The notes under the pieces: generated by a model
The model's input: the letters and a program-made list of their open reading frames with translations, nothing else
The model's database searches: none
What the model was told of the DNA's origin: nothing
Assembly: GCF_044324875.1 (NCBI RefSeq)
Contig: NZ_CP172188.1
Source of the DNA: Escherichia coli
GTDB taxonomy: Bacteria; Pseudomonadota; Gammaproteobacteria; Enterobacterales; Enterobacteriaceae
DNA: 64,000 bases
Direction: 5' to 3' (one strand)
Program-made: the position numbers and the translations under genes
Part shown: positions 12,452 through 63,305 of the stretch, piece after piece
Layout of the letters: every line of letters begins with the position of its first letter
Numbering within the stretch: the first letter of the stretch is position 1

Positions 12452-12528
12452 GATGGTGTAGCTCAGTAGGATAGAGCAGCAGCCTTCTAAGCTGTCGGTC
12501 GGTGGTTCGAATCCACCCACCATCGCCA
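12452..12528 (+). tRNA. tRNA-Arg (anticodon TCT)
   Basis: 77 nt; 7-bp acceptor stem GATGGTG/CACCATC, D-arm GCTC..GAGC, anticodon loop CTTCTAA, T-arm GGTGG TTCGAAT CCACC, encoded CCA. Confidence 0.9.
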
Positions 12529-12530
12529 AT

Positions 12531-12606
12531 GCCGGTTTAGCTCAGTTGGTAGAGCGCCTGCCTTGTAAGCAGGATGTCAGCGGTTCGAGTCCGTTAACCG
12601 GCACCA
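12531..12606 (+). tRNA. tRNA-Thr (anticodon TGT)
   Basis: 76 nt; acceptor GCCGGTT/AACCGGC, anticodon loop CTTGTAA, T-loop TTCGAGT, encoded CCA; P1 also carries a tRNA-Thr. Confidence 0.9.
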
Positions 12607-13561: not shown

Positions 13562-13637
13562 GGCCCTTTAGCTCAGTGGTTAGAGCTGGCGACTCATAAT
13601 CGCACGGTCACCGGTTCAAGTCCGGTAGGGGCCACCA
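13562..13637 (+). tRNA. tRNA with CAT anticodon, most likely tRNA-Ile2 (lysidine type) rather than elongator Met
   Basis: 76 nt; GGCCCTT acceptor, anticodon loop CTCATAA, T-loop TTCAAGT; resembles enterobacterial ileX-type tRNA as I recall it; P1 also encodes a tRNA-Ile. Confidence 0.85.
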
Positions 13638-38139: not shown

Positions 38140-38430
38140 GGCATTATCGTGGGGTATATTTCTACGGCACCTTAGAAAAACGGGTGCCGGGATTGGAACC
38201 CCGGATAATGCAAAAGGCGACACAGACGCCGAAAGCGTCTTTTCTTGTGTCATGCCATCGCACAGCCATACGTAGCGTTTAGCTCAGAGATCAATGGTAG
38301 TGCTGGCTGGGCTGCCGAAAGGCAGGCCGGTTCCCTTTTGCGCCGGTAGTTCCAACCCAGTCAGTGCTACCGCCATTGAGATTGGAACCTCACGCGGTAG
38401 CTCCTTAAATTAGCAAAAGGAGGCTGCCAA
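38140..38430 (+). ncRNA. candidate c4-like antisense RNA / leader region of immunity module A
   Basis: Structured leader upstream of the icd-like gene: direct repeats GATTGGAACC (38192, 38383) and a partly complementary GTTCCAACC (38346); hairpin GACGCCGAAAGCGTC + T-run near 38223. Confidence 0.3.
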
Positions 38431-55315: not shown

Positions 55316-56977
55316 TTAACCTAACTTCGCCCAGGTATCACGCAGCCCAACGGTGCGGTTAAATACCGGTTTTTCCGCCGTAGAATGGCGGCTATCGAGG
55401 CAGAAGTAACCTTCACGCTCAAACTGGAATGCTTTACCCGCAACCGCATCTTTCAGCGACGGTTCAGCAAAGCCCTGTTTGATCACCAGCGATTCCGGGT
55501 TAATCACCGACAGGAAATCATCCGCAGCACCTGGGTTAGGCACGCTGAACAGACGATCGTACAGGCGGATTTCAACCGGCAGCGCATGTGCCGCGCTCAC
55601 CCAGTGAATAACGCCTTTCACTTTACGACCATCTGCCGGATCTTTGCTTAAGGTGTCGGCGTCATAAGTACAGAAGATGGTGGTGATATTGCCTTCGGCA
55701 TCTTTCTCCACGCGTTCAGCCTTAATGACGTAAGCATTACGCAGACGCACTTCTTTACCCAGCACCAGACGTTTGTACTGCTTGTTAGCTTCTTCGCGGA
55801 AATCGGCGCGGTCGATCCAAATCTCACCGCTAAACGGCACCTGACGGCTACCCATTTCCGGTTTGTTCGGATGGTTCGGCATGGTGACCATTTCGCCTTC
55901 GCCCTGGTAGTTTTCGATAACCAGTTTCACCGGATCGATAACCGCCATTGCGCGCGGCGCATTTTCGTTGAGATCTTCACGGATGCAGGATTCCAGCGAC
56001 GCCATCTCAATGGTGTTGTCCTGCTTGGTCACGCCGATGCGTTTGCAGAACTCACGAATAGAAGCCGCAGTGTAACCACGACGACGCAGACCGGAAATGG
56101 TCGGCATACGCGGGTCATCCCAGCCTTCAACGTGTTTGTCGGTCACCAGCAGGTTCAGCTTACGCTTGGACATCACGGTGTATTCCAGATTCAGGCGCGA
56201 GAATTCGTACTGGCGCGGGTGAACAGGAATGGTGATGTTGTCCAGCACCCAGTCGTACAGGCGACGGTTGTCCTGGAACTCAAGCGTACACAGAGAGTGC
56301 GTAATACCTTCCAGCGCATCGCTGATGCAATGGGTGAAGTCGTACATCGGGTAGATGCACCACTTGTTGCCAGTCTGGTGGTGTTCAGCAAATTTAATGC
56401 GGTACAGCACCGGATCGCGCATTACGATAAATGGCGACGCCATGTCGATTTTCGCACGCAGGCAGGCTTTACCTTCTTCAAAACCACCGGCACGCATTTT
56501 TTCGAACAGCGCCAGGTTCTCTTCAACGCTGCGATCGCGGTACGGGCTGTTTTTACCCGGCTGCGTCAGGGTGCCGCGGTATTCGCGGATCTGTTCCGGC
56601 GTCAGTTCGTCAACATACGCCAGGCCTTTGTTGATCAGTTCAACAGCATAGGCGTGGAGCTGATCAAAATAATCGGAGGAGTAACGGATGTTGCCAGACC
56701 AGTGAAAACCTAACCATTCAACGTCGTTTTTAATCGACTCGACGTACTCGATATCTTCTTTTACCGGGTTAGTGTCGTCGAAACGCAGGTTGCACTGGCC
56801 TTTATAGTCCTGGGCGATCCCGAAGTTCAGGCAGATAGATTTCGCATGACCAATATGCAGATAGCCATTCGGTTCCGGCGGGAAACGGGTATGTACTGTG
56901 GTGTGCTTACCACTGGCCAGATCTTCATCGATGATCTGACGAATAAAGTTAGTCGGGCGGGCTTCTGCCTCACTCAT
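55316..56977 (-). CDS. glnS: glutaminyl-tRNA synthetase
   Basis: 553 aa; class I HIGH (HIGHAKS) and KMSKS-type (VMSKRK) motifs; essentially colinear with enterobacterial GlnRS. Confidence 0.95.
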
Positions 56978-57168
56978 TGTGGATTCCTCAAAGCGTAAAC
57001 AACGTATAACAGCGTATGATCTTATAAGCCGAATAGGCTGACAACCACTAGTTGATTAGAAATTGCTTTCTATCGTTATTTCAATAATGAGCTTTTTCAT
57101 TAAGCCCACTTTTGCGCATAAGTAAATTAATGACAAATGGTACACAATTGGAACCAAAAAGGATGTAA

Positions 57169-57201
57169 AGGTGCACCAAATTAGTGGTGTATTGGTGCAC
57201 C
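57169..57201. repeat. palindrome GGTGCACCAA-N13-TTGGTGCACC
   Basis: Perfect 10-bp inverted arms downstream of the parG-like gene / upstream of glnS; adjacent TTGGAACCA-type motifs. Confidence 0.5.
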
Positions 57202-57245
57202 TTTGGTTCAAGACTTTTTAAGTTCTAAAACCAACCTGAAAGACT

Positions 57246-57533
57246 TTATTTTGCTTCCTCAGACTCCGCTAACATGAGGATAGCATGGCGGATCATATTC
57301 AATTTGCTACGATTATGCTTTTTACTTAACGCATCAAGTACCTGGTACTCGTATTCATTGAAACCAACACGAATAGATTTAAAATCACGTGGAGCGTCCT
57401 TATCGAGCACTTTGTTGTCTTCTGGTTGCTCACCCGGCACCAAATCAGCCTTACTTGCAAAATCCTCAATTCGGCGTTCAAGATCGGGGTCTTTTACTTC
57501 GGGGGCTTTTACCGATTTACGAGGCTTAATCAC
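57246..57533 (-). CDS. ParG-like ribbon-helix-helix partition protein
   Basis: 95 aa; C-terminal RHH-like SIRVGFNEYEYQVLDALSKKHNRSKLNMIRHAILML; start overlaps ParF-like stop. Confidence 0.5.
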   Translation of the reverse strand: MIKPRKSVKAPEVKDPDLERRIEDFASKADLVPGEQPEDNKVLDKDAPRDFKSIRVGFNEYEYQVLDALSKKHNRSKLNMIRHAILMLAESEEAK

Positions 57534-58167
57534 TTAATAACTCCTTAACCAACATCTGGATTTCACCTTTAGCTTTCCCGTTGTCCATCTCAACAACGCC
57601 CTTCCCTTCAGCCATGCAATCGCGGTAAACCTTACGATCACGAATGATGGTTTTCAGCAACTTCAGTTGCGGATATTCAGCCAGGTACTCTTTGGCCTCA
57701 TTGGTTTCATTCACAACCGGATTGGATGGGGCCATTGTTAAGACTGCGAACGCCTTAATGCTAGGATTAGGCATCAGGTCCAAAGCCTCTTCAAACACTT
57801 CAACAAAGTGTGCCAGCGTGTCTAAATCTGGTTGAGATGGTCTGAATGGGACCAACACAATATCTGCAGCGGTTATGCCTGTACGCATCTCTTTGCTATC
57901 GCGCCCGGCTGTATCAACAACTACAAATTCATAACGCTTATCCAGATCGAGAAGTGTTTCTCGAATATTACCAAACTTCTGGACACAATGAATTACAGGA
58001 GAAACCTCTGCCGTGTTACGGTCAGCGGCCCAGCGGGCAGCTGTTCCTTGCTTGTCTGCATCTAGTAACACTACATCCTTATTTTCGCGGGCAAGCTCCG
58101 CACAGATGTTTACGCTTGTGGTTGATTTTCCACAGCCACCTTTTTGGCTGACTACCAATATAATCAT
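57526..58167 (-). CDS. ParA/ParF-family partition ATPase
   Basis: 213 aa; deviant Walker A VVSQKGGCGKST and motif LLDADKQG. Confidence 0.8.
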   Translation of the reverse strand: MIILVVSQKGGCGKSTTSVNICAELARENKDVVLLDADKQGTAARWAADRNTAEVSPVIHCVQKFGNIRETLLDLDKRYEFVVVDTAGRDSKEMRTGITAADIVLVPFRPSQPDLDTLAHFVEVFEEALDLMPNPSIKAFAVLTMAPSNPVVNETNEAKEYLAEYPQLKLLKTIIRDRKVYRDCMAEGKGVVEMDNGKAKGEIQMLVKELLSD

Positions 58168-58189
58168 ATCCGTTCCTCGGTGTTATTTT

Positions 58190-58406
58190 GGTATCAAACT
58201 GGTTCCAAACAGAAGCCTTATTGATGCGGTTTTGGCTCTATAGTGGAGTCATTATGCTTTGCAAAAGTATAACACTAATCATTCTAAATTTGCCCTCTGT
58301 TGCATCCTGTTTAACACGAAATCAGCACTAAATTGGAACCAGATACAAAGCAGCACCATAACAACACCGTTTTGGTACTAAAAGAGCACCAAACTAGAAC
58401 CATAAC
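58190..58406. repeat. repeat-rich putative centromere/operator region of the ParF/ParG module
   Basis: CAAACTGGTTCCAAAC, TAAATTGGAACCAGATAC, AAACTAGAACCATAAC and related copies. Confidence 0.45.
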
Positions 58407-58452
58407 GGTATAAAAAAGGCTGCAAATTGCAGCCTTTGAAGATGTAGATTGG

Positions 58453-58824
58453 TTAATCAGGGAGTGAGTTTGCCAAATTCTGAGCAGAGCGGCTTTTCGG
58501 AACGCCTGGTTTTTTTACATCCTCTGAGACAGAGGTTTTTCCTTCAGTAGGTTCCCGAACTTCATGCGAAATTTCAAGAAACGAAACCAGCATTTTTCTG
58601 ATCACTTCAGAGCTATTATCACCGGATAAAAGCGATGCCAACATGGGAGGTAATCTGCTATCAACCTCGCCAAGAGCGATACCTGCAAGCATCGCAGTGC
58701 GCACCATATCATTGCGATCACTTAATGGATGGGCCTCAATTTTTGCCACAGCATATTGCTCACTGGCGTAAGCGTTAAGATCTGAACGAAGATAAAACAT
58801 TATTTTTCGACGTTCTTTAGACAT
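58453..58824 (-). CDS. parR: ParR-like centromere-binding protein
   Basis: 123 aa immediately downstream of parM; hairpin terminator follows at 58410..58436. Confidence 0.5.
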   Translation of the reverse strand: MSKERRKIMFYLRSDLNAYASEQYAVAKIEAHPLSDRNDMVRTAMLAGIALGEVDSRLPPMLASLLSGDNSSEVIRKMLVSFLEISHEVREPTEGKTSVSEDVKKPGVPKSRSAQNLANSLPD

Positions 58825-58834
58825 GGCAACCTCA

Positions 58835-59794
58835 TCAACCGATAGATTTTAGACCATATACAAGAGCAAGTTGTGGATCATCAGCAACGAAAAACCTATC
58901 GTCACGAATGTTTACCTGCTCACGGATAGCATCAGCAACAAGCGGCGCGCCGCCACCAATTACCATAACATGTGTGTATCCTTTGAAATCACTGATCACA
59001 TCCAGTACGCGTGTACGGAGTCGCTCTATGCTTGACGAAATGGCTTTCTTAACATCATCAATAGCAGACGGATCGTTAATATTGTCGGTCAGATAATCCT
59101 CATCATCTCGATTAATGATTAATTGATCGACGTTATAATTAGAGGTTTCGGTATTAGCTTTTGCAAGTGCCTGTCTGACCTCTTTAGTTACCAGCGAAAC
59201 GCCGAGATTAGAATCGCCAAATACGCGAGAAACGGCGGTCATTTGCCCGGCAACCATCGACACATCCAGAGTAGTCCCGCCAAGATCAACAATAAGCACA
59301 GAATGCGCTGGCACAAGGCTGTCGCACAGACCGATCCCTGCGGGTATTGACTCCGGGCGCACAGTCACTTTTTTGATAGTAAAAACCTGACCTTTGTTAA
59401 GGGTGACTGGTCGCATCAGGCTGGCCTTTTTCCGCTCAATATTTTTCATGTTGTATTGTGCGTCGTCGTCATAAAACTCTGCCAGTGGCAACGTGACTAC
59501 TATTTCCACTTCTTGAGGCTCAATGCCACTTGTAAGCAGGGCATGATGAACAGCAAGCACATTAAGCGGGCTGTATTGCCATTCAACGTTATTCGTTGGC
59601 AGAGCATCCGGCGAGATCAAGTCATATGAATATTTTTCGTCATCAATGATGTAGTTAAACGTTTTTCCTGCGCCAAATGTGGCGGACCATCCACGTTTAA
59701 AACTGTTCGGGCAGATATGGGTTCGAGTTTCCCCGTCTTGTTCCCACAGCATTTTGATATTGGTAGAACCATCGTCGATAAAAATGCGCATCAT
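58835..59794 (-). CDS. parM: ParM/StbA actin-like segregation ATPase
   Basis: Start MMRIFIDDGSTNIK (GGAG RBS); blocks SPNSF, VHHALLTSG, IVDLGGTTLDVS, GDSNLGVSLVT, YTHVMVIGGGA match R1 StbA as recalled. Confidence 0.85.
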   Translation of the reverse strand: MMRIFIDDGSTNIKMLWEQDGETRTHICPNSFKRGWSATFGAGKTFNYIIDDEKYSYDLISPDALPTNNVEWQYSPLNVLAVHHALLTSGIEPQEVEIVVTLPLAEFYDDDAQYNMKNIERKKASLMRPVTLNKGQVFTIKKVTVRPESIPAGIGLCDSLVPAHSVLIVDLGGTTLDVSMVAGQMTAVSRVFGDSNLGVSLVTKEVRQALAKANTETSNYNVDQLIINRDDEDYLTDNINDPSAIDDVKKAISSSIERLRTRVLDVISDFKGYTHVMVIGGGAPLVADAIREQVNIRDDRFFVADDPQLALVYGLKSIG

Positions 59795-59890
59795 ATTGCT
59801 CCACTTCTGAGACACATTTGAGAAAGAATTGAATCTTATATGAGAAAACAAAATAAAACCAGAAGTTGAGAGAGCAAAAAGCACCAGATT

Positions 59891-59956
59891 TGAGACAAAC
59901 CAGAGACAAACCAGAGACAAACTAGAGACACACTAGAGACAAGTATGAGAAACAAG
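59891..59956. repeat. parC-like centromere: five to six tandem 11-bp iterons
   Basis: TGAGACAAACC AGAGACAAACC AGAGACAAACT AGAGACACACT AGAGACAAGTA upstream of parM. Confidence 0.65.
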
Positions 59957-60013
59957 AAATCTTAAGAGTGAAAATCACAAAGTGGAGAAGATTTAAGAAA
60001 AAGGAGGTGTTAG

Positions 60014-60298
60014 ATGAGTGCAATAGCGACCTGTGACACAGTTTGTTCCGGTCATGGAGGATTCCCTCCGCGACCTGTAGCAGAAACAGTTTCCTGGTTT
60101 ACCGTAAATGGAAAGCCAGTTGTTGTAGATGGTGCCATGTTTCCCAGTCACACTGACGGTAACAGTGCACATCCAGGGGCAGCTGTATCGACGCGAGTAT
60201 GGTTTTCGATAGGTGGAAAGGGAGTTGTCTGTGTAGGCGATCCGCTTTCTTGTGGTTCTGTTATCGCCAACGGCGAGGATATTTTTCAGGTTGCATAA
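60014..60298 (+). CDS. PAAR-like spike-tip protein
   Basis: 94 aa, Cys/Gly-rich with HPGAAV and repeated G-x-V segments; my reading of the printed sequence around 60013-60061 differs from the ORF track by one base, track coordinates used. Confidence 0.45.
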   Translation: MSAIATCDTVCSGHGGFPPRPVAETVSWFTVNGKPVVVDGAMFPSHTDGNSAHPGAAVSTRVWFSIGGKGVVCVGDPLSCGSVIANGEDIFQVA

Positions 60299-61104
60299 TG
60301 CTTGATTCAATAGGTGAAGTTAAAGCCTTCAAAATTCTGTCAGATGCCGGTATCTCTACACCAGAATCTATAACCATAAGCCGGGCAGCTTCTGTAAAAG
60401 CCTCATCGCTCGCCAGCGCCATACAGGGAATAGTTCACGCCGATAAAACCTATCCTGATTCTGTTTCGGCCTGGACTACTCAATTGCTTGGCTTTTCTGA
60501 ACAGCTCAATGAGGCCAGCAAAGCGTCTTCATCACTGGCTGATTCTCTTTCCCCATACACCAAGCCATCAGAGCTGTTACAGATGAAGATTGGCTGGGAA
60601 TGCTACGCAAAAGGTAACGAGCTGACCCCCATACCTGCTTTCGCCCTTGTTGAGGGAATGGGGAATGTTTCCATTCCGCAATCTCTAACGGACGCATTGA
60701 CGGCGCTAAAACTTGATGCTCTGAAAACCGCCATGAACGCCATTAACGCAAAAATTGAAGCTGCCGGAAGTGCTGGTGGTGGTGAAAGCAATGGTGGACA
60801 GGGTGGTGCTGGGGGCGCTCAGGCTCCAGTCATTACTCAGGATGAAATTGATGCTTTACGGGAAGCAGTGACAGCCGCCGAAGTTTTACTCTCCGAAATT
60901 AACTCAGCAAGTGAGGGTGTCGTAGCCCTTACAGGTCGCATTAAAACGTCAACCACTCAGGCAACCAAAGGTTTAGAGAACGCTGTCGCCATCACGTTAA
61001 CTGGTTCTCTACTGGATGATGCAGTAATGAGTCCGGCAATCAGTTTAATCATGCCACAAGGCGTTATTGATGCGCTCCAAAAGAACACCAAAAAGGAACC
61101 ATAG
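60298..61104 (+). CDS. hypothetical protein (start at MLDSIGE, TAATG overlap with PAAR-like gene)
   Basis: ORF 60199..61104; Gly-rich linker GSAGGGESNGGQGGAGGAQAP. Confidence 0.45.
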   Translation: MLDSIGEVKAFKILSDAGISTPESITISRAASVKASSLASAIQGIVHADKTYPDSVSAWTTQLLGFSEQLNEASKASSSLADSLSPYTKPSELLQMKIGWECYAKGNELTPIPAFALVEGMGNVSIPQSLTDALTALKLDALKTAMNAINAKIEAAGSAGGGESNGGQGGAGGAQAPVITQDEIDALREAVTAAEVLLSEINSASEGVVALTGRIKTSTTQATKGLENAVAITLTGSLLDDAVMSPAISLIMPQGVIDALQKNTKKEP

Positions 61105-61159
61105 AAACACCACTTAGGCACACAAAAGGATGTATATTGGTACATGTTTAACACCAAAA

Positions 61160-61633
61160 ATGAACCTGAAGAGGATGGTTTTGAAAAAGATAATTTTGAT
61201 TGTAATTGCGCTTTTAGCCATTTCTGGAATTTACCGAACAACGACGGCAGTTATCGAACACATCAGGTATGTCCGATCGCTTGAAGACTCAAAATCACAA
61301 CTGGAAAGCACGAACAACACGCTTTCTACCGCATTACAGTTAAGTGAGAACGCTCGCTCAGCCATGCTGACCGAAAACGAAAGAATTAAAGCACTGGAAA
61401 AGGAGTACCAGCGCAAAACAGCAGAACTGAATGCCAACCTAATCAAACAACGAGAGGAAAGCCAGAATGAAATCACTCGCCTTGAAAATGCGTTGCGCCG
61501 TGCTGGGATTAACGATGTGCGTGTGCCTGATGACGTTATCAGGATGCAGCGGGAACGGGCAAAAGCCATCAACCAGCGTGCCAGTGAAAATTACCGTAGA
61601 AGCCACCAGCAAGCCGCAGGCAAATCTGATTGA
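61160..61633 (+). CDS. i-spanin (Rz-like): N-terminal TM anchor + periplasmic coiled-coil
   Basis: ORF 61130..61633; KKIILIVIALLAISGIY then coiled-coil. Confidence 0.6.
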   Translation: MNLKRMVLKKIILIVIALLAISGIYRTTTAVIEHIRYVRSLEDSKSQLESTNNTLSTALQLSENARSAMLTENERIKALEKEYQRKTAELNANLIKQREESQNEITRLENALRRAGINDVRVPDDVIRMQRERAKAINQRASENYRRSHQQAAGKSD

Positions 61634-61899: not shown

Positions 61900-62160
61900 T
61901 TCAGGCTTATATTCACGCCGTTGCAGCAAATTCTGCGACCGGGTTTAGCAGCCTGAATGTACATGCGGACAACCGCAGATATCCGATATTGCGGTATTTT
62001 TGTGTCCGTAAAACCATGTTACGCCCGAATTATGGTGGGGCGTGATGGGGAGGCTTCGGCCTGCTGGTTTCATGTACGCCAGTCTGCTAACCCCGTCACG
62101 TCCTGCCACCCGTTTAGCAGCGGGTAGCAGGTTGTTAAACCTGTACATGAGGCCGTAACT
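61900..62160 (+). ncRNA. candidate c4-like antisense RNA locus of immunity module B
   Basis: Paired elements a=TTTAGCAG and b=GTACATG occur at 61945/61958 and again at 62112/62141; complements (CATGTAC at 62066, CTGCTAA at 62085) lie between in reversed order. Confidence 0.35.
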
Positions 62161-62385
62161 ATGGTTAATGCCAATCCTTGCTCACGTCCAGAATTCATCT
62201 GGCGTTTTCACTCCCTGCAAAAACACTGCGATCACTTCGCAATTGCCGCAACTGAAAAAGAAGCCCGTTCTCTGATCCCTGATCAGTATGGTGTTCTTAC
62301 TGGTCGTTTCTCTACTTCCCCACAACCAAACACTAATCCCTGGTATCGCAATATTACCAATCCCGGAATTGCGGAGGCACACTGA
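62161..62385 (+). CDS. Icd-like small protein (module B)
   Basis: 74 aa; paralog of 38432..38647; stop overlaps ant start (TGATG). Confidence 0.5.
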   Translation: MVNANPCSRPEFIWRFHSLQKHCDHFAIAATEKEARSLIPDQYGVLTGRFSTSPQPNTNPWYRNITNPGIAEAH

Positions 62386-63305
62386 TGGATATCTGCATTC
62401 TTGAAAAGCCATCAATGACCAGCATTGAGATCGCGGAGCTGGTGGGAAGTCGTCCAGATAACGTAAAAATATCAATAGAGCGCCTGGCTAAATCTGGAGT
62501 TATTCAACTTCCTGCATTGCAGGTTTTCGAAAAAATCAATAACTTAGGACTACGCCGTAGTGTCGAGGCTTACGTCTTCGAAGGCGAGCAAGGCAAACGA
62601 GACAGCATTATTGTCGTTGCGCAGCTCTCTCCCGAATTCACCGCCCGGCTGGTGGACCGCTGGCGCGAACTGGAAGAACAAGTACGCCAGCCGTTGACCG
62701 AAATAGAGATGATCGCCGCAATGGCTGCAAATGCAGTTCAGCAGCAAAAGCGGCTTCATGTTGTTGAGTCAAAGGTTAGCCAGGTTGCTGAAACCGTCGA
62801 GCAGATCAAGAAGGGCAACATGCCAGAAGGTTACATTGGCTACCGCCAGCTGGCGGCGAAATGTGGCCTGACTGAAGCCAAATGTCGCAACCTGGTTAAC
62901 GCTTTCCGGATTCCCACCGATACGCATGAGTTTTTAACTCCAGATGGTTTGCTTGCGCGACGCTCCATTGTGGCCCTGGCCCCCTTCCGGAAAGCCTTTA
63001 AGCAGGTGATGTCGGAGGCAGAACCACGCAACAAACGCTGGTATCATCCGAAGATGGGGCTGTTTCAGGCAATCCATCATCCTGTGCCTGAAAGCCCAAA
63101 GGATAATCTGTCACTACATACCGTCAGAGAGAAGATCAGGACTGGATACGCAACAGTGTGTCGTCGTTCTTCCTGGCCTGAAGGTATATGGGTGTGGCCC
63201 GAAGGTGGATCACGAAAGCACTGGCGCACTATCCGGGACGGGAAAATCCATGCTATTGATTTAGCGCCAGAGGATATTGTTGCTACGGACTGGATTGTTA
63301 GTTAA
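62385..63305 (+). CDS. antirepressor-like protein: Rha-family N-terminal domain fused to DUF2829/Tad2-like domain (module B)
   Basis: 306 aa; N-terminal 60 aa and middle linker differ from module A, C-terminal 200 aa nearly identical. Confidence 0.65.
   Translation: MDICILEKPSMTSIEIAELVGSRPDNVKISIERLAKSGVIQLPALQVFEKINNLGLRRSVEAYVFEGEQGKRDSIIVVAQLSPEFTARLVDRWRELEEQVRQPLTEIEMIAAMAANAVQQQKRLHVVESKVSQVAETVEQIKKGNMPEGYIGYRQLAAKCGLTEAKCRNLVNAFRIPTDTHEFLTPDGLLARRSIVALAPFRKAFKQVMSEAEPRNKRWYHPKMGLFQAIHHPVPESPKDNLSLHTVREKIRTGYATVCRRSSWPEGIWVWPEGGSRKHWRTIRDGKIHAIDLAPEDIVATDWIVS

Follow-up and report, generated by a model that had tools for sequence, protein, structure and literature searches.

A 64,000-nucleotide stretch of Escherichia coli DNA (contig NZ_CP172188.1; the whole stretch is called the window here) carries what appears to be the tandem double partition locus of a D6-like phage-plasmid, made up of two mechanistically unrelated, self-contained cassettes. 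One is a type II system, with an actin-like ATPase (ParM), an adaptor (ParR) and a centromere (parC); the other is a type Ib system, in which a small Walker-type ATPase (ParA) is paired with a ribbon-helix-helix (RHH) protein. We put the probability of this reading at roughly 85%. It rests on homology, a predicted fold, the architecture and statistics of the repeats, conservation and purifying selection, from which we infer DNA binding, repression, ATPase stimulation and plasmid stabilisation by each cassette. A preliminary description of the window had proposed that two different partition systems adjoin here, each with its own repeats, and this proposal is borne out, with each described feature found at the position given for it or close by. 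All four genes are on the minus strand, as two operons in tandem. The relatives compared were phage D6 itself (L001), pEC361_3 (L002) and four other D6-like loci (L003-L006); the parA genes of these four are 86-93% identical to that of the window, with far more divergence in the intergenic regions.

ParM of the window carries both ParM Pfam domains (StbA_N, 4e-69; ParM C-terminal domain, 9e-56), matches R1 ParM structures with 54% identity (E = 1e-110) and is 42% identical to pB171 ParM. After a gap of 10 nt, parR encodes a protein with matches to Pfam Plasmid_stab_B (2.9e-13), to the pB171 ParR/StbB structure 2jd3 (E = 3.9e-7) and to a 'partition protein' among the PHROGs (9e-50). Upstream of parM, Tandem Repeats Finder detected an array of period 11 at 59892-59942 (4.6 copies, 92% matches, score 81, plus-strand unit GAGACAAACCA), and six iterons extending to 59957 can be read by eye, in gene orientation TTGTTTCTCAT, ACTTGTCTCTA, GTGTGTCTCTA, GTTTGTCTCTG twice and GTTTGTCTCAA, in agreement with the five to six tandem 11-bp repeats first described. 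A second, proximal cluster, which had gone unmentioned together with the inverted boxes and the third array discussed below, keeps the 11-bp register of the distal units and ends at the parM ribosome-binding site GGAG. The gap of about 39 bp between the two clusters (59853-59891) is the presumed parM promoter region. The GGCTGCAAATTGCAGCC hairpin that follows parR is kept in all D6-like relatives, and for this reason we regard parMR as a separate transcription unit; our consensus scan did not list this terminator.

Judged by these sequence features, namely the ParM domains, the adjacent ParR and the presence of parC repeats, the cassette is of type II and of the R1 parMRC kind. Both loci have the order parC-parM-parR and, just upstream of parM, two clusters of 11-bp direct repeats that flank a short gap, and their ParM proteins are 54% identical, in line with the comparison with R1 parMRC suggested at the outset. 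In R1, parC consists of two iteron clusters around the promoter, with 5+5 iterons. The window differs from R1 in having 6 + ~4 iterons, the proximal ones degenerate, and in a ParR with detectable similarity only to the pB171 ParR structure and to Plasmid_stab_B; the TTGTCTC core of its iterons and its ParR differ even from those of D6.

The ATPase of the second cassette matches the Pfam families AAA_31, CbiA, MipZ and VirC1, which are of the ParA/MinD type, and the P1/F-type models SopA and RepA match it in fragments only. Type Ib ParA proteins are about 200-220 aa long and lack an N-terminal helix-turn-helix, and the window ParA, at 213 aa, is of this kind. It aligns over its full length both to TP228 ParF (206 aa), which is its best match among solved structures (E = 1.5e-18, 29% identity, 70 bits), and to pB171 par2 ParA (214 aa; 43% identity, E = 5e-59, 172 bits). 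Because of this difference in identity and score, pB171 par2 ParA, rather than ParF, is the closest relative so far characterised. The pair had initially been called ParF/ParG-like, a label that is apt at the level of class, whereas the ATPase is closer to pB171 ParA and the small protein has no detectable sequence similarity to ParG.

In the 95-aa product of the small gene, a basic N-terminal tail (MIKPRK) is connected by a linker to a predicted C-terminal RHH domain (residues ~52-93). The protein itself had no match in Pfam, NCBIfam or PDB sequence searches, and a profile of 11 relatives compared with the PDB gave nothing useful. It belongs to PHROG 9169, of 'unknown function', with a weak match to Arc-like repressors (1.8e-4, residues 53-94). 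A word-indexed homologue search gave near-identical proteins only; the diverse family needed an exhaustive profile search, which returned 199 clusters, mostly of 75-100 aa. RHH models of Pfam matched members of this family, with NikA-like hits in 26/85 and RHH_1 hits in 25/85. Homologues 46-53% identical to the window protein are encoded behind a homologous ParA in Rahnella, Aeromonas, Arsenophonus and Serratia plasmids.

An AlphaFold model of the monomer was set aside, having a predicted template-modelling score (pTM) of 0.33, a low-confidence N-terminal half, two C-terminal helices and only non-significant Foldseek matches. It was replaced by a linked-dimer construct, in which two C-terminal domains are joined by a Gly-Ser linker, modelled with a paired alignment of 32 homologues. 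The resulting AlphaFold2 (AF2) model shows beta-alpha-alpha twice, with a predicted local distance difference test (pLDDT) above 93 in the domains and a pTM of 0.76, and its top Foldseek matches are single-chain Arc and the tandem-RHH chains of the F relaxosome, which we take from the structure entry to be TraY (probability 0.99-1.0, TM <=0.68). The protein is thus predicted with high confidence to form a C-terminal RHH dimer, and the view that it is RHH-like, put forward in the preliminary description, is strengthened by the model, by the TraY and Arc fold matches and by the Pfam matches of the family. In the N-terminal tail, K3 and R5 are invariant across the close family. By analogy, MIKPRK is placed like the ParA-activating tail of type Ib partner proteins and may have the same role. 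The 5' part of the gene, which encodes the flexible tail, contains a 15-bp imperfect tandem duplication at 57484-57512 (TCGGGGGCTTTTACT, 1.9 copies) that is probably incidental.

The candidate centromere of the type Ib cassette consists of TTGGTRCC-type boxes at 11-bp spacing. In gene orientation, the boxes after the parR terminator read GGTTCT, GGTGCT, AGTACC, GGTGTT, GGTGCT and GTATCT and, after a 6-bp phase shift, GGTTCC, AGTGCT, CGTGTT, GGATGC, AGGGCA ... AGTGTT. Base autocorrelation at lag 11 in this upstream region reached z = 6.6 against shuffles, with z = 4.3-5.9 in five diverged D6-like relatives and 3.3 in an Aeromonas plasmid. A weight matrix built iteratively from seven loci has the consensus WWTTGGTRCYA. 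For tests of window density and phased runs we used a non-circular matrix trained on L003-L006 only. With this matrix, hits are densest at 58181-58380 among all 200-bp windows of the 64 kb (10 hits, 0.68 expected), and boxes occupy 6/7 phased slots in the upstream array and 5/7 in the leader (58167-58243); the phased-run maximum of 30 block shuffles was 3-5, with 5 reached once and 6 never. The TGGAACCA-type repeats that had been noticed at 58190-58406 therefore stand, on the lag-11 periodicity, the window density and the phased runs.

Within the same region, (T/C)TATACT preceded by TG is kept in all seven D6-like upstream regions despite differing flanks. On the strength of this conservation, TGTTATACT is a candidate element of the parA promoter, one that the consensus scan missed. 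About 60 bp beyond it, ahead of the ribosome-binding site, are the inverted boxes of the leader.

A second array lies downstream of the RHH gene, outside the captured host glnS segment that follows. It contains a palindrome with arms at 57167-57179 and 57192-57204 (13 nt each, 100% complementary, 12 nt apart), which corresponds to two inverted boxes; the 10-bp arm originally recorded is the core of these perfect arms. With the seven-locus matrix, the downstream array is the second densest 200-bp window. In L002, L005 and L006, which are without glnS, the downstream sequence is different and again has 8-10 boxes, with a clean terminator after them. When the matrix was trained on the window, L001 and L002, the downstream arrays of L003-L006 ranked among the top-3 phased runs in all four and first in three. 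We consider the downstream array believable because the boxes recur in the differing sequence of relatives and because a non-circular matrix ranks them. A small open reading frame at 57056-57211 was treated as a non-gene; it has no family match and overlaps the array.

The third array is 2.9 kb away from the type Ib cassette, beyond the coordinates first given for the locus, and was a recurrent runner-up in window-wide scans. It reads AACACC-aaaaa-GGAACC-ataga-AACACC-actta-GGCACA-...-TGGTAC-atgttt-AACACC-aaaaa-TGAACC, and the gene that follows upfB has its probable start at 61181, by alignment with D6 orf55, and encodes a small protein with an N-terminal hydrophobic segment. The array is kept in all six D6-like relatives; those of L003 and L005 differ in sequence yet retain eight boxes, and with a matrix not trained there they fill 6/7 phased slots, with a top-3 run in each of L003-L006. 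From its boxes, the distal array is probably a third binding region for the RHH protein, as centromere or operator. In the four distant plasmids, from Rahnella, Aeromonas, Arsenophonus and Serratia, the same box motif also precedes parA, and in three it follows the small gene as well.

We weighed whether the TGGAACCA-type repeats might be AT-rich intergenic noise next to an ordinary terminator hairpin and not protein-binding sites, and we find this barely credible. A loose hexamer pattern is indeed common: several other 150-bp windows reach 10 hits, and the regular expression that we had tried was dropped as unspecific after several unrelated windows scored equally, to be replaced by the matrices and the phased-run statistic. 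The downstream array also falls within the range of shuffles, and its palindrome folds stably as RNA. Against noise stand the strong 11-bp periodicity of the upstream region in the window and in every diverged relative, the boxes that are kept while spacers and flanks diverge, the matrices from one set of loci that find the arrays of the other, and the other genera examined, where the motif precedes the homologous operon in all four and follows it in three. The coordinates of all features are collected in Table 1.

Table 1. Genes, repeat arrays and putative regulatory elements of the double partition locus, in window coordinates
Feature	Coordinates	Strand	Description
Downstream array	57135-57216	-	TGAACC, TGCACC, GGTGCA, ACATCC, GGTTCC, TGTACC; candidate second centromere, terminator hairpin, or both
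RHH gene	57246-57533	-	95-aa candidate centromere-binding protein; GTG start overlaps parA stop by 8 nt
parA	57526-58167	-	Small Walker-type (type Ib) partition ATPase, 213 aa, deviant Walker A KGGCGKST
Inverted boxes in leader	58179-58206	-	GGAACC, GATACC, AACACC, 11-bp spacing; candidate operator
Candidate extended -10 of parA operon	58266-58274	-	TGTTATACT; overlaps last upstream box
Upstream array	58270-58401	-	Candidate centromere; ~12 direct hexamer boxes, 5-bp AT-rich spacers, 11-bp period
Intrinsic terminator after parR	58412-58434	-	GGCTGCAAATTGCAGCC stem-loop, then U-tract; separates the two operons
parR	58453-58824	-	Type II adaptor, candidate centromere binder, 123 aa; directly downstream of parM
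parM	58835-59797, or 59791 with the second-ATG start of D6	-	Actin-like segregation ATPase, 318-320 aa
parC, proximal cluster	59809-59852	-	~4 degenerate 11-bp units, plus strand GAGACACATTT, GAGAAAGAATT, GAATCTTATAT, GAGAAAACAAA
parC, distal cluster	59892-59957	-	Six tandem 11-bp iterons, gene strand nTTGTCTCnnn; presumed ParR sites upstream of the parM promoter
Third, distal array	61082-61166		Same boxes, 11-bp spacing; end of upfB and just upstream of next gene

Several observations weigh against the reading of two complete cassettes. In the window itself, the downstream and distal arrays fill 4/7 phased slots, a level often reached by shuffles; the repeats first placed at 57147-57211 are present (57135-57216) but weaker than the upstream ones, and their support comes from conservation in relatives. 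The downstream palindrome (RNA fold of -31 kcal/mol, z = -3.4) could be simply a terminator or may double as one. The RHH fold comes from an artificial linked-dimer model with Foldseek E-values of ~0.01, and the best PDB matches of the family profile are the RHH proteins HP0222 and CopG, at E = 0.07-0.2 only. No similarity of the 95-aa protein to ParG or pB171 ParB was detectable by BLASTP, hhalign, Pfam or PDB comparison, although undetectable similarity is usual among type Ib partner proteins (PMC3074162, PMC7602700). ParA matches the NCBIfam model NF041546 ('ParA family partition ATPase') at 7e-48 but with 162.8 bits, below the equivalog cutoff of 180, which makes it by that model a near relative and not an equivalog. 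The consensus promoter scan gave no credible sigma-70 promoter for either operon, the parC gap included, and in the literature we found no experimental support for either cassette, in this element or in D6.

Selection speaks for the use of both cassettes. The ratio of non-synonymous to synonymous substitution rates (dN/dS), calculated against the six relatives from unsaturated dS only, was 0.01-0.04 for parM, 0.02-0.03 for parA and 0.05-0.08 for the RHH gene, and these three genes are under strong purifying selection. The order and intactness of the four genes are kept in every relative inspected, and phage D6 and about 130 plasmids share the arrangement. Because of the purifying selection and the intact genes in relatives, both cassettes would be used somewhere in the life cycle. 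An alternative that we consider unlikely, but less so than the others weighed here, is that both are partition-type by ancestry while only one segregates the element ordinarily, the other serving as a conditional backup (for a given host, temperature or growth rate) or mainly in incompatibility or competition with plasmids in the same cell. Unequal contributions have been documented in the double-par plasmids SCP1, R27 and Shigella pINV (PMC13245405), and parR/parC evolves fast and is swapped between lineages, as expected of selection on incompatibility specificity. Such a division of labour is harder to square with dN/dS values of 0.01-0.08 for both nucleoside triphosphatases (NTPases) and the RHH gene, and with four intact genes in every relative examined.

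The rapid evolution of parR/parC is visible in the comparison with D6. The four genes correspond to D6 orf58-orf61 in the same order, and ParA and the RHH protein match their D6 counterparts at 100% identity; the intergenic region downstream has one difference from D6 in 268 bp, and glnS lies beyond it as in D6. The window parR/parC is, by contrast, another variant: its ParR is 59-62% identical to D6-type ParR (62% to that of D6) while ParM stays at 93%, with dS saturated, and the iteron core is GTCTC in the window as against TTCTCA/ATCTCA in D6. The window parM (99%), parR (84%) and upstream box region resemble pEC361_3. In its sequence, the window is thus a mosaic of a D6-type type Ib module and a pEC361_3-type parMRC, a pattern suggestive of recombination between the cassettes and of a parR/parC specificity that turns over quickly. 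At the C-terminal end of ParR, the final dozen or so residues are kept (...SAQNLANSLPD, compared with ...SARNLADSLPD in the D6 type), and central and C-proximal stretches, as well as parts of the N-terminal DNA-binding region, are strongly diverged from the D6 type. This would fit a protein whose ParM-contacting tail is conserved while its specificity for DNA changes, and the mosaic and the ParR divergence would fit diversifying pressure on partition specificity. Fast parR/parC evolution and module mosaicism suggest a shuffling of partition specificity and hence of incompatibility, which bears on which phage-plasmids can coexist.

In the mechanism that we propose, cooperative binding of ParR dimers would occupy the 11-bp iterons of parC, of which six lie upstream and about four downstream of the promoter. 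This binding would repress the parMR operon, and the ParR-parC complex would capture the ends of ParM-ATP filaments, whose growth would push sister plasmids apart. In the type Ib cassette, RHH dimers would coat the TTGGTRCC-type boxes of the upstream, leader, downstream and distal arrays, and, with their basic N-terminal tail, would stimulate ATP hydrolysis by ParA bound to the nucleoid. Acting together, ParA and the RHH protein would place the plasmid copies along the nucleoid and keep their operon under autoregulation.

The distal array bears on a further explanation, in which the small ParA and the RHH protein do not primarily serve segregation and the RHH protein is a local regulator of its own operon, of the gene after upfB and perhaps of glnS, with a ParA-like partner, much as in global regulators of the omega or KorB type. 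Such a role would account for a conserved array 2.9 kb off, directly upstream of an unrelated gene (probable start 61181), and for three boxes in the parA leader, and RHH proteins are typically repressors. We nevertheless judge it quite improbable. The ATPase is homologous over its full length to pB171 ParA, whose role in partition is proven; arrays of ~12 boxes exceed the needs of an operator; and the gene pair flanks a replication-initiator gene in the Rahnella and Aeromonas plasmids and lies ~1.3 kb from one in the Arsenophonus plasmid. Regulation and centromere function moreover coexist in known type Ib systems, as in OF/parH of TP228 (PMC3130281).

If the type Ib cassette is a partition system, as we favour, the RHH protein might in addition bridge or loop ~3-4 kb, or co-regulate the gene after upfB, and in this way functionally couple the two partition systems. 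The upstream and distal arrays bracket the whole parMRC cassette plus upfC/upfB. We offer this coupling as a tentative idea with the odds against it. If true, it would parallel, in a tandem locus, the regulatory cross-talk of pB171, or else give a phage-plasmid its own small counterpart of omega, which regulates globally and has three parS sites.

From sequence comparison, the closest analogue of the locus is the double par locus of pB171 and not TP228. A pB171-type double par locus was located by a search with the pB171 ParR sequence. In both, an actin-type and a small Walker-type system are directly adjacent on one replicon, and par2 ParA and par1 ParM of pB171 are 43% and 42% identical to the window proteins. 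The pB171-type operons are, however, divergent, whereas those of the window follow one another on a single strand, separated by a terminator. The two operons of pB171 share parC1, a central centromere/operator region. The window RHH protein is without sequence similarity to pB171 ParB, and its TTGGTRCC boxes differ from the TCATAC/TCACAC-like repeats of the pB171-type locus, to which the window adds the third, distal array. The type Ib repeat arrays upstream and downstream of the operon correspond to parC1 and parC2 of pB171 (PMC7602700).

With TP228 parFGH the window shares a small Walker ATPase and a small RHH protein with a flexible N-terminal tail. In the parH/OF region of TP228, short boxes, some direct and some inverted, alternate with AT-rich spacers, and at both loci a long distal array of mostly direct boxes is accompanied by a set near the promoter in which inverted boxes occur (PMC3130281). 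The window has 6-bp boxes and 5-bp spacers (11-bp period), compared with 4 bp + 4 bp in parH, and additional downstream and distal arrays. The suggested comparison with TP228 thus holds for the box-and-spacer architecture and the type Ib class, but not for the proteins, with 29% identity to ParF and no match to ParG.

Several separate short-repeat arrays for the centromere-binding protein are also found in the delta/omega system of pSM19035 and in ParAB of pESBL, and type Ib arrays on both sides of the operon are known from pB171, pSM19035 and pESBL (PMC7602700). The pESBL ParB, like the window protein, was a formerly unannotated 'hypothetical protein' of ~100 aa. The pSM19035 and pESBL proteins are unrelated in sequence to those of the window, and the pESBL box is an octamer, GATAACAA; a kinship of the window ParA pair to pESBL ParAB was rejected on this difference in box motif.

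Other plasmids are already known to carry two such cassettes side by side. A type II system paired with an RHH type I system, of which the pB171 double par locus is the classic case, has been documented in nearly a thousand of them (971 in PLSDB; 2026 survey, PMC13245405), and the current understanding of partition mechanisms is unchanged by the present locus. Particular to the window are the tandem arrangement, the 6+5-bp TTGGTRCC box, the unannotated RHH family and the distal array; a literature search of limited reach found no paper describing these four features. For a family of unknown role (PHROG 9169; 'hypothetical protein' in RefSeq and in D6), the analysis supplies a probable function and a DNA motif.

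The preliminary description set the element against P1. By its sequence it is a D6-like, P1-related phage-plasmid and not P1 itself: the 3-kb par region has 89% DNA identity to orf58-orf62 of Escherichia phage D6. The same region matches 131 PLSDB plasmids of ~90 kb each from Escherichia, Salmonella, Shigella and Enterobacter, of which 129 are non-mobilizable and every one inspected is typed rep_cluster_1704. The partition machinery had also been described as replaced and duplicated. One NTPase has an actin fold and the other is a Walker ATPase, and since they are unrelated the locus implies two acquisitions rather than a duplication. Replacement is right in so far as P1-type parA, parB and parS are found nowhere in the phage D6 genome, but the cassettes are not at the par position of P1, where parS-parB-parA-incA-repA-oriR lies between gene 23 and upfA. 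In the window they sit between upfC (PAAR protein, 60014-60298) and glnS/dmt; in D6, ~11 kb separate repA from the par cassettes. D6-like elements are common in E. coli, Salmonella and Shigella, with ~130 plasmid records, and the double locus would account for their inheritance without ParA, ParB and parS of P1.

Existing annotation covers the locus in part. The GenBank notes for D6 (MF356679) give orf58 and orf59 as 'StbA/StbB type plasmid stability proteins', orf60 as 'possible ParA partitioning function' and orf61 as hypothetical, with the centromeres unannotated. For a Salmonella D6-like plasmid, the partition genes are given as 'cop, parA, stbB and parM' (PMC6799933).

Directly downstream of the type Ib cassette, at 55316-56977 on the minus strand, is glnS, a full-length gene for glutaminyl-tRNA synthetase (553 aa). 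Its DNA is 96-97% identical to the chromosomal glnS of virtually all 5,426 E. coli genomes, with homology to the chromosome extending ~70-90 bp upstream of the gene, to about 57045-57065; it is a host housekeeping gene captured by the phage-plasmid. It is also present in phage D6 (orf62), L003 and L004, and absent from L002, L005 and L006.

An Rfam scan of 56.9-60.1 kb, which covers the par region, returned no RNA family. Elsewhere in the window there are two C4 antisense RNA loci (Rfam RF01695) on the plus strand, at 38290-38377 and 62028-62113. The corresponding regions, 38167-38377 and 61907-62113, have isrK in one case and an a1/b1 target element in the other, and an antirepressor-like open reading frame (62385-63305) follows the second locus. 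The two loci mark two immunity-type regions, consistent with the two icd/antirepressor pairs of D6. Rfam also identified three tRNA genes on the plus strand, at 12452-12603 and 13562-13634, where D6 has annotated tRNA-Ser, tRNA-Thr and tRNA-Asn.

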